Virus record (IMG/VR): IMGVR_UViG_3300015608_001846
Span: 1 to 21,648 of that record
Length of the DNA: 21,648 bases
Origin: a virus
Strand: one strand, 5' to 3'
Made by a program: the position numbers and the translations under genes. Under the pieces are notes generated by a model. That model saw nothing but the letters and a program-made list of their open reading frames with translations. It did not search any database and was not told the origin of the DNA. Of the stretch, positions 5,597-17,905 are shown in pieces (the stretch's first letter is position 1; every line of letters begins with the position of its first letter).

Positions 5597-6441
5597 AGTT
5601 TGTGCATGAAAAGAACATCAACCCGTTTCTGGCCTTGGCGTCATCGATCGGTCCACAGGGCCTGGATGTCACGCTGGCCGCCCTAAAACACGGTGCGTAT
5701 GTCGCAGGAGGGTGTGCCCGGGTGGCCTGCAGCAGCCGGTCCCTCGACGCGATCGACAACAAACCGGCAACCTTGCGGTTGATAGACTACCTTGATGTCC
5801 ACAATCACGTCGATGTCAAGGAGTTTGGGAATCCTCACTACCGCCGTGGCAGGGGCGACATTGACGTCTTCTTTAGCAACGTAGACTCATTGGGCAAGTT
5901 CTTGAACAGCTCAGAACTTCGATCAGTGGAGTGTGTACGAACAACGAACTATGCACAGACGCATGTGACCACGACGGGAGCACTCATCCAAGTGATCACC
6001 GGCTTCATCCATCCGATCAAAGAACAGCTGTCGCGGTTCGACCTGCTGAACGCCATGGTCGCTTTCAACGACAAGGAGGTCATCGCTGCTGAGGGGTGGC
6101 GTGAGGCCGACGATGCAGCTGTTCTGAACATCGTCAACTGGGCAGGGCCGTTCATAGTTTCACGAGCTGCTAAGTGGATCAGGCGCCACCGATTACGCAG
6201 CATCGCTGCGGAAACTGCTAGCAGGTTGGCTGAACGAGCGCTAGAAACTGGCGCCGAGCTGCGGCAACAACCAATCAAGACGTCTTGGGGGTCGTGGACC
6301 ACCGACAGGCACTTTGCTCGGCTTAAGCTGTTGCTGCCATACTTCGATGATCGATCGTTGTTGTTGTTGACGTCAGCGTACGCCGGAGACGAGTACCAGA
6401 GCGCGTTCCAAGAGCTTCACAAGCGTCATACGTTGCCCTAG
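5593..6441 (+). CDS. hypothetical protein, possible nucleotidyltransferase-fold (GG...DIDVFF)
   Basis: ATGA overlap with the map stop. 282 aa with VAGGCARV and, about 55 aa later, GDIDVFF, loosely like the G[GS]...DxD of Pol-beta-type NTases. The C-terminal third is helical and Arg-rich. The fold assignment is weak. Confidence 0.6.
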   Translation: MKFVHEKNINPFLALASSIGPQGLDVTLAALKHGAYVAGGCARVACSSRSLDAIDNKPATLRLIDYLDVHNHVDVKEFGNPHYRRGRGDIDVFFSNVDSLGKFLNSSELRSVECVRTTNYAQTHVTTTGALIQVITGFIHPIKEQLSRFDLLNAMVAFNDKEVIAAEGWREADDAAVLNIVNWAGPFIVSRAAKWIRRHRLRSIAAETASRLAERALETGAELRQQPIKTSWGSWTTDRHFARLKLLLPYFDDRSLLLLTSAYAGDEYQSAFQELHKRHTLP

Positions 6442-6722
6442 TGCGGGAAGACGTCTCGAGCAAATGGGTCGGGTGTCGCGTACGGGTCTTCACCCGTCGG
6501 TGGCACCGGCCCGAAGCAGTCTGCGGCGTCGACTGCTGGTTCGCGTAGGTGGGCCGACACGTCAGCGTCGTCATCAGTGTCGATGTCGTAGTCACCCAGC
6601 GAACCCAGCTGTTCACGGTCGACGACCGGGCCCACCGACCCATCAAACGGCACGGATCGGTGTGGTAGTCCGCCCGCAGCCTCTCGCACTAGCCGACGCA
6701 GCTCTGACACCCTGATCTTCAT
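6438..6722 (-). CDS. acidic Pro/Gly/Asp-rich protein with N-terminal LRxLVRE module
   Basis: I prefer ATG 6722 (MKIRVSELRRLVREAAGG) over the TTG at 6749, because it gives the same spacing to the LR motif as the ATG-17905 paralog and within one residue of the ATG-8652 paralog. The rest is low-complexity and acidic (DYDIDTDDDAD). Its stop shares the CTAG tetranucleotide at 6438-6441 with the convergent gene. Confidence 0.55.
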   Translation of the reverse strand: MKIRVSELRRLVREAAGGLPHRSVPFDGSVGPVVDREQLGSLGDYDIDTDDDADVSAHLREPAVDAADCFGPVPPTGEDPYATPDPFARDVFPH

Positions 6723-6759
6723 GAGGATAGGTATGCCAGGTGAGGCCAAACCTGGGCTG

Positions 6760-6900
6760 TTACAGCTGTTCCCACGAGACGTCGCTGGCTAACATCACCT
6801 CGCGGACCGCGGCGATCGAGCCAGCAATCGCCGCTGCGATCACGATGAATAACGCAATGCCGACTGCATTAATTCGCTGCGACTTTTTTTCGATGTTCAT
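6760..6900 (-). CDS. 46-aa single-pass membrane protein (below ORF-track size cutoff)
   Basis: Hand translation: MNIEKKSQRINAVGIALFIVIAAAIAGSIAAVREVMLASDVSWEQL. ATG 6900 is preceded by GGGAGG with a 9-nt spacer. It is co-directional with and immediately upstream of 6438..6722. The plus ORF 6740..6922 is the antisense alternative. Confidence 0.5.
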   Translation of the reverse strand: MNIEKKSQRINAVGIALFIVIAAAIAGSIAAVREVMLASDVSWEQL

Positions 6901-6932
6901 CCCCACGCGCCTCCCGTCCTAGACAAGACGAT

Positions 6933-7020
6933 ACCTATAGGTCTCTCTAACCGCAAGTTTCGGTCACTCGAGTGACCCACGAATAACTTTCAATTGATTG
7001 ACCATGGCTTCTTAATTAAG
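6933..7020. promoter_or_regulatory. divergent control region with three perfect palindromes
   Basis: Lies in the 181-nt gap between divergent genes (6900 minus, 7082 plus). Contains ACCTATAGGT (6933-6942), GGTCACTCGAGTGACC (6962-6977) and CTTAATTAAG (7011-7020). No confident -35/-10 pair could be called. Confidence 0.35.
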
Positions 7021-16030: not shown

Positions 16031-17115
16031 CGCATGCGATGCAGACCCAAGGCAGCGTTACCGTCGAGCAGCTTGTCAGCTCGAACAACGTCGTCTTGCG
16101 TCAAGACGTTGAGACACCTTTCCGGTTCAACACAAACGTACGTTGCAGGCACACATGACGTCAAGCTTGACAACGAGCGCTCGATCTTCATCGTCACCTG
16201 GTGTTGACGGAGTTCACGTTTCCGTGTGTAAGGCAGGTCGACCGAGCGAACCAGCGTCGCCACGTCGATGACCATGCAACCGTTCGAACCAAAGTGTGCT
16301 GGTTCACTGTTGGGTGGAACATCGTCTAGTGTGACGAACGTCTGCCTCCCGTCGGCCCAATACAACAGGTCATCAAGGCGTTGGTTTTTCTCTGTGGGGA
16401 TGACCTCACATGTCAATTGTGAACCCTGTCGGATGTGGCGTGCCAGCACCCGCAGGTCAATGTCAGCCAACACGTTGCTGACTGGAACTACATACAGGTG
16501 TTTAACCTGAGGATTGTCAGTGAGAACGCCCGACTCAATCAACGCCGCACCCAGGTCGCCAGTGCCAGTCGGGTGTCGTATGACTTTTCCATCGTCAGAC
16601 ACGTGAAGCGAGTAATCCGGACGAAGCACCGGTGCGTCGAACTGCTCAAAGAGGCTGCACGTCGGTTGGGGTGACAGCGTAGAGAGCTCACTAGCGTATC
16701 GTTCGAGGGTGTTAGGGGCGACCATGATCCACGTCAACGCTGTCGTTGCCCTGTCGTTCACCGACACGGTCGCTTGAAAGATCTTATGTGTGACCAATGA
16801 CACACCGACACCAGGCAACCTGATGAACGATTTCGAACCGCCTGTCCTAGAACCGATCCCACCCGCAAGGACGACGAAGGCCACGTGGCCCTGCTCGACG
16901 AGTTCGAATGCGTGGTTGATTTCGTCAAGAGCGACATCGTCGACCGTCTGCAACTCGTTTGTTGAGACCGGTTCACATGCGTGGATCGCTGGCTTGACGT
17001 TGACCAATGCAGCTACGTACTGTTCCAGATCGACCTGACCCGCCCTCTGACGGAAACCAACCGTTGGTTGCCACTGGTTGCGCAGCGCAGCAACAAAACC
17101 GTGTTCGATTCGCAT
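16027..17115 (-). CDS. UDP-sugar pyrophosphorylase (UDPGP/UAP family nucleotidyltransferase)
   Basis: Start set at ATG 17115 (AAGG 8 nt upstream, 4 nt after the previous stop) rather than TTG 17154. VAFVVLAGGIGSRTGGSKSF, LTWIMVAPNT, HPTGTGDLGAAL, LYVVPVSNVLADID and TCEVIPTEKNQ parallel the remembered UAP1 motifs (LLAGGQGTRLG, WYIMTS, PDGNGG, VDNILVK, KVVEKT). Confidence 0.75.
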   Translation of the reverse strand: MRIEHGFVAALRNQWQPTVGFRQRAGQVDLEQYVAALVNVKPAIHACEPVSTNELQTVDDVALDEINHAFELVEQGHVAFVVLAGGIGSRTGGSKSFIRLPGVGVSLVTHKIFQATVSVNDRATTALTWIMVAPNTLERYASELSTLSPQPTCSLFEQFDAPVLRPDYSLHVSDDGKVIRHPTGTGDLGAALIESGVLTDNPQVKHLYVVPVSNVLADIDLRVLARHIRQGSQLTCEVIPTEKNQRLDDLLYWADGRQTFVTLDDVPPNSEPAHFGSNGCMVIDVATLVRSVDLPYTRKRELRQHQVTMKIERSLSSLTSCVPATYVCVEPERCLNVLTQDDVVRADKLLDGNAALGLHRMR

Positions 17116-17119
17116 CGAA

Positions 17120-17308
17120 TCAACCTTGCGTGGGAGGATGCTTGACAAAGACAACGACCTTGTCCCCAGTGATCTTTGCTAGCATGCCTTCCAGCGCCGA
17201 CCGCGTGAAAACAAAGACGTGACCGTCCCTGACAGCTGCACACGAAACGCCCATTGCCTCAGCGCTTGACACGAGAAAGTCTGCTGCATCGTCTGTTTTA
17301 ACAGTCAT
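17120..17308 (-). CDS. hypothetical small protein (62 aa)
   Basis: ATG 17308 preceded by GAAGGGA. It fits exactly between the NUDIX and UDPGP genes; no family recognised. Confidence 0.45.
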   Translation of the reverse strand: MTVKTDDAADFLVSSAEAMGVSCAAVRDGHVFVFTRSALEGMLAKITGDKVVVFVKHPPTQG

Positions 17309-17365
17309 GTTCCCTTCATACTACTGTAATCAAACACAGTGTGCAATGGTAAGGATCACTCGAGG

Positions 17366-17905
17366 CTAGATCATCGATGCTAACCGAGCAAACAATTGAC
17401 GATTGTAGTCAGCAAACGGTGATGTGGTCGGGTCGATGAGGACGTTGGGTTGGACCCAGCGAATCACGCCCTCTTCGTCAGACTCGATCTGACCGGTCAC
17501 CTGGCACGCAAACGTCGTGGTGACATATTCACCATCATCTGCCACAAAGACCCGCTGAAGGCTGATGCAGTCTAGTCCCGTTTCTTCCTTTAGCTCCCGC
17601 GCTGCCGCTTCTTCGGGTGTCTCACCGGGGTCGACTTTTCCTCCTGGCAAGCCCATCATCGTCGGGTCGTCGCGTCGGCTGACGGCTAGCACAGTACCGT
17701 CATCAGCGACGACGAGGACACATGCAGCTCGACGAAGCGCCTTGGGTTCATCGAGCTCGTCGAGCTCTTCCCACGTGGCCAATCCATCGTTGGGCCTGAC
17801 TGCAACGTCGTATCGCATGTTACCAGCAGGCGACGGAGCATCCATCGCAAAGCCGTCGAGGACCTCTCGCACCAAAGCACGTAGGCCCTTGATGTCACTG
17901 AGCAT
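17366..17905 (-). CDS. NUDIX hydrolase with ~55-aa N-terminal LRxLVRE-NMRY extension
   Basis: NUDIX box GGKVDPGETPEEAAARELKEETGL. The N-terminus MLSDIKGLRALVREVLDG...GNMRYD matches the N-termini of 8425..8652 and 6438..6722. Confidence 0.9.
   Translation of the reverse strand: MLSDIKGLRALVREVLDGFAMDAPSPAGNMRYDVAVRPNDGLATWEELDELDEPKALRRAACVLVVADDGTVLAVSRRDDPTMMGLPGGKVDPGETPEEAAARELKEETGLDCISLQRVFVADDGEYVTTTFACQVTGQIESDEEGVIRWVQPNVLIDPTTSPFADYNRQLFARLASMI

Follow-up and report, generated by a model that had tools for sequence, protein, structure and literature searches.

The window, that is, the whole stretch of 21,648 nucleotides analysed here (IMG/VR virus record IMGVR_UViG_3300015608_001846, positions 1 to 21,648), comes from an uncultured bacteriophage with a large genome of about 320 kb. 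Three of its minus-strand genes begin with the same N-terminal peptide, a 14-residue helix of the strict pattern M-x6-L-R-x-L-V-R-E, hereafter called the tag. The carriers are a 94-aa protein (p1, 6438..6722), a 75-aa protein (p2, 8425..8652) and a 179-aa NUDIX hydrolase (p3, 17366..17905). The shared start noted in the original prediction is confirmed, and its spread is much broader than the window alone shows, since the tag heads many otherwise unrelated proteins in related viral loci. We consider it likely that the tag is a common docking tag in general; its narrower identification as a T4-like capsid-targeting propeptide cleaved after Glu14 is drawn by analogy and is tentative. No earlier description of the tag was found in the searchable literature, where the peptide strings of the tag returned no match.

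Sequence features of the tag

The motif LR.LVRE occurs exactly three times in the six-frame translation of the window, always on the minus strand and always at residue 8 after an ATG, in the genes starting at 6722 (MKIRVSELRRLVRE), 8652 (MLLTLSRLRELVRE) and 17905 (MLSDIKGLRALVRE). When the window was resampled 500 times under a first-order Markov model, LR.LVRE averaged 0.004 occurrences and the M-x6-motif 0.03, with a maximum of 1; the near-identical starts of the three genes are thus far beyond chance. Independent gene calls on the public contigs gave the identical three proteins of 94, 75 and 179 aa. Among the three copies the codons of L-R-x-L-V-R-E differ at the third position in almost every conserved codon, which shows that selection acts on the peptide and not on a DNA repeat or an RNA element; the DNA upstream of the three copies is not alike.

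The tag spans residues 1-14/16 in the three window proteins and in 93 representative metagenomic proteins, from which a tag profile was built. The consensus is M-[KRL]-[ILV]-x-[LIV]-x-x-L-R-x-[LI]-[IV]-[RK]-E over the first 14-16 residues or so, and the p1 tag scores 30-34 bits against the profile. A distant fourth member that had been suggested at 13789-14022 has no Glu, stands in the wrong register and scores -1.3 bits, and is not retained. The tetrapeptide NMRY, which had been counted as part of the shared peptide, occurs twice, at 8587-8598 and 17810-17821, both times within tagged proteins. It is restricted to the p2 and NUDIX families and was found in none of the 93 other tagged representatives; it does not belong to the general tag.

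The tagged proteins

Protein p1 consists of the tag (MKIRVSELRRLVREAA, 6675..6722, recovered by motif and by profile match), a Pro/Gly-rich middle and a conserved C-terminal part with the motifs REQLG ... HLREP ... DC[FYW]GPVPP ... DPF, as seen in the alignment with its counterparts from loci L093, L102, L123, L124 and L126. In p2 the tag (MLLTLSRLRELVREEV, 8605..8652, motif match) is followed by ERNMRYNAG, which contains the NMRY (8587..8598) common only to the NUDIX family, then by PPPGLG, an acidic stretch and a basic end; the p2 family alignment shows ERNMR[WY]SAG ... PPPGLG ... acidic stretch. Both proteins had been described as continuing in acidic, Pro/Gly-rich, probably disordered tails. 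The composition holds for p1 (17 D/E versus 4 K/R, and 19 P/G in 78 aa) but not for p2, whose tail has no net acidity (11 D/E versus 10 K/R), and both carry conserved family motifs. Judged by these alignments, p1 and p2 are members of conserved small-protein families with motifs of their own and not mere disordered tails. A Pfam scan of both proteins gave no match, and a word-indexed homologue search with p2 alone recovered only p2 itself.

The NUDIX hydrolase p3, assigned by Pfam and AlphaFold, begins with the tag (MLSDIKGLRALVREVLDG, 17852..17905), continues with a linker of residues 19-56 (17738..17851), which is predicted to be disordered and contains the NMRY at 17810-17821, and ends with the catalytic domain of residues 57-179 (17369..17737). 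The match to PF00293 covers residues 57-161 (E = 2.5e-22). AlphaFold, run on an alignment of 42 sequences, predicts a helix at residues 5-17, a low-confidence linker at residues 20-52 and a NUDIX core from residue 57; the predicted local distance difference test score (pLDDT) is below 50 at residues 20-31, 34-44 and 50-52 and averages 91-98 per 10-residue block in the core. Foldseek matched the folds of MutT, RppH and ADP-ribose pyrophosphatase to the core only. The extension of about 55 aa on a complete NUDIX domain is real, as it is kept in nearly all of the 120 NUDIX homologues listed (738 matches in all). Within the 42-sequence alignment E14 is invariant, conservation reaches at least 90% at L8 and R9, and the family consensus reads M..LLRxxIREVLDGFGNKNxGKDGVxGNLRYD, followed by an acidic stretch and the NUDIX domain. 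Among sequenced phages the closest NUDIX genes, those for the T4-like NudE of Acinetobacter phages, begin to align only at about residue 68 and thus lack the extension.

Distribution of the tag in related viruses

Near the NUDIX locus of the lineage loci the tag is present on at least 10 families that have no detectable similarity to one another beyond it. A relaxed version of the motif, counted in 370 kb of related loci, occurs at 2.03 per 1000 positions within residues 2-15 of open reading frames (ORFs) versus 0.26 at internal positions, an enrichment of about 8-fold, whereas control viral loci show none (0.21 versus 0.19). A scan of viral contigs with M[KR]IR[LV][SG][ED]L[RK] returned 22 loci with a GC content of 39-58%, among them clear homologues of p1 and p2. 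Up to about 10 different tagged genes occur per 20 kb in L093, L102 and L103.

An exhaustive profile search of 1.84 billion representative proteins yielded 92 clusters at E <= 1e-3 (clusters of 50% identity, found with a weak profile at a strict threshold), most of which match the tag from residue 1 with the consensus MKI[TR]xxQLRRIIRE; it was more productive than an earlier search with an alignment of 13 tag sequences, which gave at least 13 matches. By this count the tag is among the most recurrent short motifs of this viral dark matter. Nearly all of the 92 clusters are without a Pfam or PHROG match, and the larger tagged families (one of about 340 aa with LLKEYIQEVL...DDGG, another of 463 aa) had no match in Pfam, PHROG and PDB-sequence searches. 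The domains that are recognisable on tagged proteins are NUDIX, HD_4 and PAP2, and all three of these tagged enzymes are phosphohydrolases. The tag heads an HD_4 protein ((p)ppGpp-hydrolase-like) and a PAP2 phosphatase at L094:11703-12206 and L109:10704-11465.

In 185,579 species genomes the strict pattern was found on only two contigs of metagenome-assembled genomes, at least one of which (L208) is as rich in tags as L093 and looks like a binned phage fragment. On these sequence counts the tag is virus-specific and almost absent from cellular genomes. Comparison of the complete window with phage records by Megablast gave no match to a cultured relative, and tblastn of the tagged proteins against 50,697 phage records gave no tag-bearing isolate.

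A second, internal tag is present in many metagenomic proteins in addition to the one at residue 1 (P0135, P0145, P0152, P0164, P0172, P0173, P0202, P0206 and others). The internal tag is preceded by Met in the examples read (...MKITKRQLRRIIKE...), an arrangement that resembles an in-frame fusion of two tagged genes; such proteins could be genuine fusions of a polyprotein-like kind, or else artefacts of gene calling. A conserved overlapping pair of small tagged genes was also observed (L091:166-640, L097, L099:10001-10481, L100, L101, L105, L108, L110 and L111). Its first gene encodes MKIRLSELRRIIRETLxEQGWVPGRWYPG... with an acidic tail (about 60-65 aa), and its second encodes MKIRIAELRKLIRKVIAEGP...DPTDVKGFYPYEVERGTDIFGYWYKSPGD (about 98 aa).

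Proposed function and alternative explanations

A conserved N-terminal helix, held in a fixed register and joined by a flexible linker to proteins that are otherwise unrelated, is the hallmark of a sorting or docking peptide. The idea of a sorting signal, put forward in the original prediction, has strong comparative support in the recurrence of tag and register on many unrelated families, in selection at the level of the peptide and in the free helix on its linker that is predicted for the NUDIX protein. The tag would act as a portable N-terminal amphipathic helix, an address label that binds one common partner, and this partner would bring many unrelated phage proteins to one place. The destination would most likely be the assembling phage head, with the tag as a functional analogue of the T4 capsid-targeting sequence: the scaffold core would capture the tagged proteins, which would enter the head together with the DNA and pass from there into the next host. 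The cargo would comprise small, fast-evolving, uncharacterised proteins and the NUDIX hydrolase, and in related phages also HD and PAP2 phosphohydrolases. A Glu-specific prohead protease would probably remove the tag after the invariant Glu14 ([I/V]-x-E).

The ending [I/V]-[R/K/x]-E, with its invariant Glu14, is a sequence-level match to a prohead-protease site. The prohead proteases of T4, phiKZ, 201phi2-1 and SPN3US all cleave after Glu (PMC5694885), a specificity found in every characterised prohead protease of the T4-like and phiKZ-like types. In T4 the internal proteins, though otherwise unrelated, bear capsid-targeting sequences in the form of N-terminal propeptides 10-20 residues long (PMC5694885, PMC3012670). 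In the T4 record Alt begins with MELITELFDE and gp24 with MAKINELLRE, and gp67 (80 aa) combines an N-terminal stretch, helical by our reading, with a poly-acidic tail in a layout broadly like that of p1. Genes for a capsid protein, a portal and a protease that resemble gp23, gp20 and gp21, respectively, occur in other huge phages with an MVP.

Several observations weigh against a capsid-targeting propeptide. About 1 Mb of loci from the lineage and from other tagged loci, which lie outside the head module, yielded neither head genes nor a prohead protease in searches with T4 proteins and with the capsid, protease and portal genes of related huge phages. A scan with a related huge-phage capsid protein returned only other clades, and the T4-type huge phages with an MVP show no tag in their head-module loci (1.0 Mb). 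A density of up to about 10 tagged genes per 20 kb exceeds that of any known set of capsid-targeted proteins. The helix does not stop at Glu14 but runs on as E-V-L, and conservation in the NUDIX family likewise extends beyond Glu14 (VLDGFGNK...GNLRYD), for which a simple removable propeptide does not account. One tagged protein has a PAP2 domain, a domain that is usually membrane-bound. The N-termini of T4 Alt, gp24, gp67 and gp68 score -3.5 to -4.5 bits against the tag profile, so that the capsid likeness would be one of analogy and not of homology.

If the tag is a packaging or sorting label, a motif of 14 residues would pick out a whole set of co-delivered or co-localised proteins in a large group of uncultured huge phages, mostly uncharacterised proteins together with nucleotide- and phosphate-hydrolysing enzymes (NUDIX, HD, PAP2). 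Its members would then be good candidates for injected counter-defence or host-takeover factors, and the tag would offer a ready-made means of loading foreign proteins, as with the T4 capsid-targeting sequence.

Alternatively, the tag might be a client-recognition signal that docks proteins onto the MVP shell, the phage GroEL or the AAA ATPase and not the capsid, which we regard as unlikely. All three are encoded in the window: the MVP-like protein (1192..3837, plus strand, 881 aa, with vault repeats and shoulder domain; treated as context only, a link to the tag not being shown), GroEL (9409..11040, minus strand), which adjoins p2 and p1 in conserved order, and the AAA ATPase (11454-12818), which many lineage loci keep within the same syntenic block. 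The order GroEL - p2 homologue - p1 homologue is common to the lineage of the window (GC about 55%) and to a second tagged lineage of different GC content (47-49%; L093:16501-19598, also L102 and L103). GroEL binds amphipathic helices. Wherever a locus has a close MVP (at least 60% identical), homologues of p1 and p2 lie within a few kb of it, and tags stand beside such close MVPs in 11 loci. Docking to the MVP shell, raised in the original prediction, nevertheless loses ground, because the 75 MVP loci (1.5 Mb) of other huge phages, whose MVPs are 39-55% identical, are without tags. The published huge phages LR745208, LR756502, LR756500 and LR756501, which have NUDIX, MVP or GroEL in common with the window, likewise show no tags in stretches of 50 kb; for the MVP- and GroEL-bearing LR756500 and LR756501 these are the first 50 kb. 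GroEL occurs in 285 phage records, with no tag in any record checked.

Docking to a shell also draws on the layout of helix plus linker, which is like that of microcompartment encapsulation peptides (PMC4594438, PMC12339742). The tag of PduD, MEINEKLLRQIIEDVLRDMK (PMC5405515), aligns from Met1 in the same register as MKITxxQLRRIIRE, with M1, I3, L8, R9, I11 and I12 in common. The similarity amounts to just 4.6 bits against the tag profile, which is not significant (EutC -0.5 bits; PduP no reported alignment), and phmmer searches with E. coli EutM, EutN and EutS gave no match to microcompartment shell genes in 3.9 Mb of loci from partly sampled genomes.

It is unlikely that the tag is the address code of a phage-encoded sorting system with dozens of clients per genome, leading to a non-capsid structure that the phage builds inside the cell, for example an MVP shell of the vault type, or to a dedicated chaperonin/AAA assembly line; if true, such a system would be a virus-specific analogue of organelle targeting or of microcompartment encapsulation.

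Improbable, too, is a self-associating or surface-binding helix that would lead to a condensate or a membrane with no specific shell or receptor. The hydrophobic positions 3, 5, 8, 11, 12 and 15/16, flanked by Arg and Lys, do form a strongly amphipathic helix, many tagged proteins have acidic, disordered tails, and microcompartment encapsulation peptides drive the aggregation and condensation of their cargo (PMC4594438, PMC12339742). The near-invariant L8, R9 and E14 and the fixed distance from Met1 are, however, tighter constraints than a generic amphipathic helix would require for membrane binding or aggregation.

A timing or degradation signal, by which an AAA+ protease or unfoldase of host or phage would limit the lifetime of the tagged proteins, is quite improbable. 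Its strictly N-terminal position and the Met-basic-hydrophobic start, which we take to resemble published N-terminal ClpX recognition motifs, would suit such a role, as would the AAA ATPase gene of the shared syntenic block. The resemblance to ClpX motifs is loose, known degradation tags have neither the invariant Glu14 nor Arg9, and the AAA protein has no recognisable protease partner within the window.

A promoter-like element, ATAnTTA, accompanies many tagged genes. In the window p1 and p2 are the only ORFs with such an element at the right spacing, ATACCTA (6728..6734, minus strand), one base off ATAnTTA and 5 nt upstream of the p1 ATG, and ATAGTTA (8659..8665, minus strand), 6 nt upstream of the p2 ATG. 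Of the 166 copies of ATAnTTA counted in 520 kb, 41 lie 5-6 nt upstream of an ORF start (1-4 for control heptamers), and the element precedes about half of the tagged genes (L109, L098, L099, L105, L020, L022 and other loci). The sites have no -35-like conservation and leave no room for a Shine-Dalgarno sequence; from its sequence setting ATAnTTA looks like a -10-only promoter giving leaderless mRNAs. It also stands before endolysin and HNH endonuclease genes and before another NUDIX gene, and so does not bring or explain the peptide; its use as evidence for late expression was rejected on the same ground. The tag-bearing loci encode sigma factors matching Pfam Sigma70_r2 (three members).

That the shared start is a by-product of the promoter, of a leaderless-mRNA start that could shape the first codons, of a recombination cassette or of a common ancestral gene, as the element before many tagged ATGs and the frequent tandem arrays of tagged genes (suggesting duplication) might imply, is highly improbable and largely refuted by the synonymous differences among the three window copies; the presence of the element before untagged genes and the different folds (NUDIX, HD, PAP2) of the tagged proteins also speak against it.

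Comparison with known systems

Like the T4 capsid-targeting sequences (IPI-III, Alt and the gp24 propeptide), the tag is a short N-terminal peptide on unrelated, fast-evolving proteins of one phage, and like the propeptides of T4 and of giant phages (SPN3US, phiKZ) it ends in hydrophobic-x-Glu, the site of a prohead protease (PMC5694885, PMC3012670). In phage SPN3US the paralogues gp53 and gp54 share identical N-terminal 15 residues (MANFVKSKLARESVE), while the remainder has diverged (PMC5694885). The cargo of T4 includes an enzyme, Alt, and so does the tagged set. In contrast to T4, the tag is longer (14-16 aa), much more strictly conserved and present on many more proteins per genome; it has no sequence homology to the T4 tags, which score below zero bits against the tag profile.

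Encapsulation peptides of microcompartments (PduD, PduP, EutC) are terminal amphipathic helices of about 15-20 aa on a flexible linker, absent from non-encapsulated homologues (PMC4594438). In its predicted structure the NUDIX protein fits this layout with helix (residues 5-17), linker (20-52) and domain, the linker being partly conserved in the NUDIX family. Encapsulation peptides are generally without sequence conservation, whereas the tag is highly conserved, and its carriers, unlike those of microcompartment tags, are phage genes. The likeness would be one of mechanism by analogy and not of membership.

With the cargo loading of vaults and encapsulins the tag has in common the general idea of a short label leading into a protein shell, and the genome has an MVP-like protein. 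Unlike the vault INT domain, however, the tag is a helix of 16 aa, and phages bearing an MVP are mostly without it. Encapsulin loading peptides are usually C-terminal and Gly-rich.

Genomic context and additional features

The p2 protein was found on at least 23 public contigs, the longest of 322,887 bp (ENA ERZ27282949, k141_2353102), on which the window occupies about 220-240 kb; the phage is present in samples such as SRR12901044, SRR6837571 and JGI 3300015607. In the relatives, on contigs of 110-370 kb, the gene order is FEN - lysozyme - NUDIX - UDPGP - HhH-GPD - Fpg - ADP-ribosylglycohydrolase - AAA. Other genes of the window encode a methionine aminopeptidase, an HNH endonuclease, a GH25 endolysin, GroEL and the MVP-like protein. 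The endolysin gene (18173-19069, minus strand) overlaps at its end with a 93-aa ORF (17895-18176, minus strand), which in turn overlaps with the NUDIX gene, and these overlaps place the NUDIX gene in the same apparent operon.

In the relatives a conserved gene for a trypsin-like serine protease with a lipoprotein signal (…LFSALAGC…; L001:13294-14097, minus strand) is located between HhH-GPD and Fpg; it is also found in L006, L007, L012-L015, L017, L019, L022, L025, L037, L044 and L056 and is missing from the corresponding position in the window. The protease, which stands beside the NUDIX gene in the relatives, was considered as a processing enzyme for the tag and was rejected because the lipoprotein signal (LAGC) marks it as exported.

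The MVP-like gene is widespread in huge-phage contigs (including L120-L207, LR756500.1 and LR756501.1), with 268 matching loci in IMG/VR. A T4-type capsid gene is located about 7-9 kb away from it in some contigs (L151, L165), and L151 also has a weak match to a gp21-like protease (E = 8.5e-4). A few kb from the MVP in lineage loci there are small ORFs (L124:14841-15257, L124:15414-16076, L125:14552-15166, L123:16125-16520 and L130:9457-9852) that resemble the N-terminal part of the gp23-type capsid protein (T4 gp23 residues 90-134, ...RRxxPxLIxxxLxGVQPMxxPTG...), with E values down to 1e-15 when compared with capsid proteins of huge phages; no such ORF was seen in the window.

Beside the methionine aminopeptidase gene of the window stands an ORF of 282 aa (5593-6441, plus strand) with a precomputed Pfam match to PF26128 (Gad2-like); our own Pfam scan of this ORF at E <= 0.01 gave no match. 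Gad2 is presumably a phage anti-Gabija protein. Small ORFs of 70-110 aa with a recurring PGDLV...G..V.V motif are located at 417-1134, 3901-4819 and 8217-8435 (plus strand), one of them with a weak match to DUF4314; by their sequences they seem to be paralogues, small and beta-rich, that flank the MVP gene.

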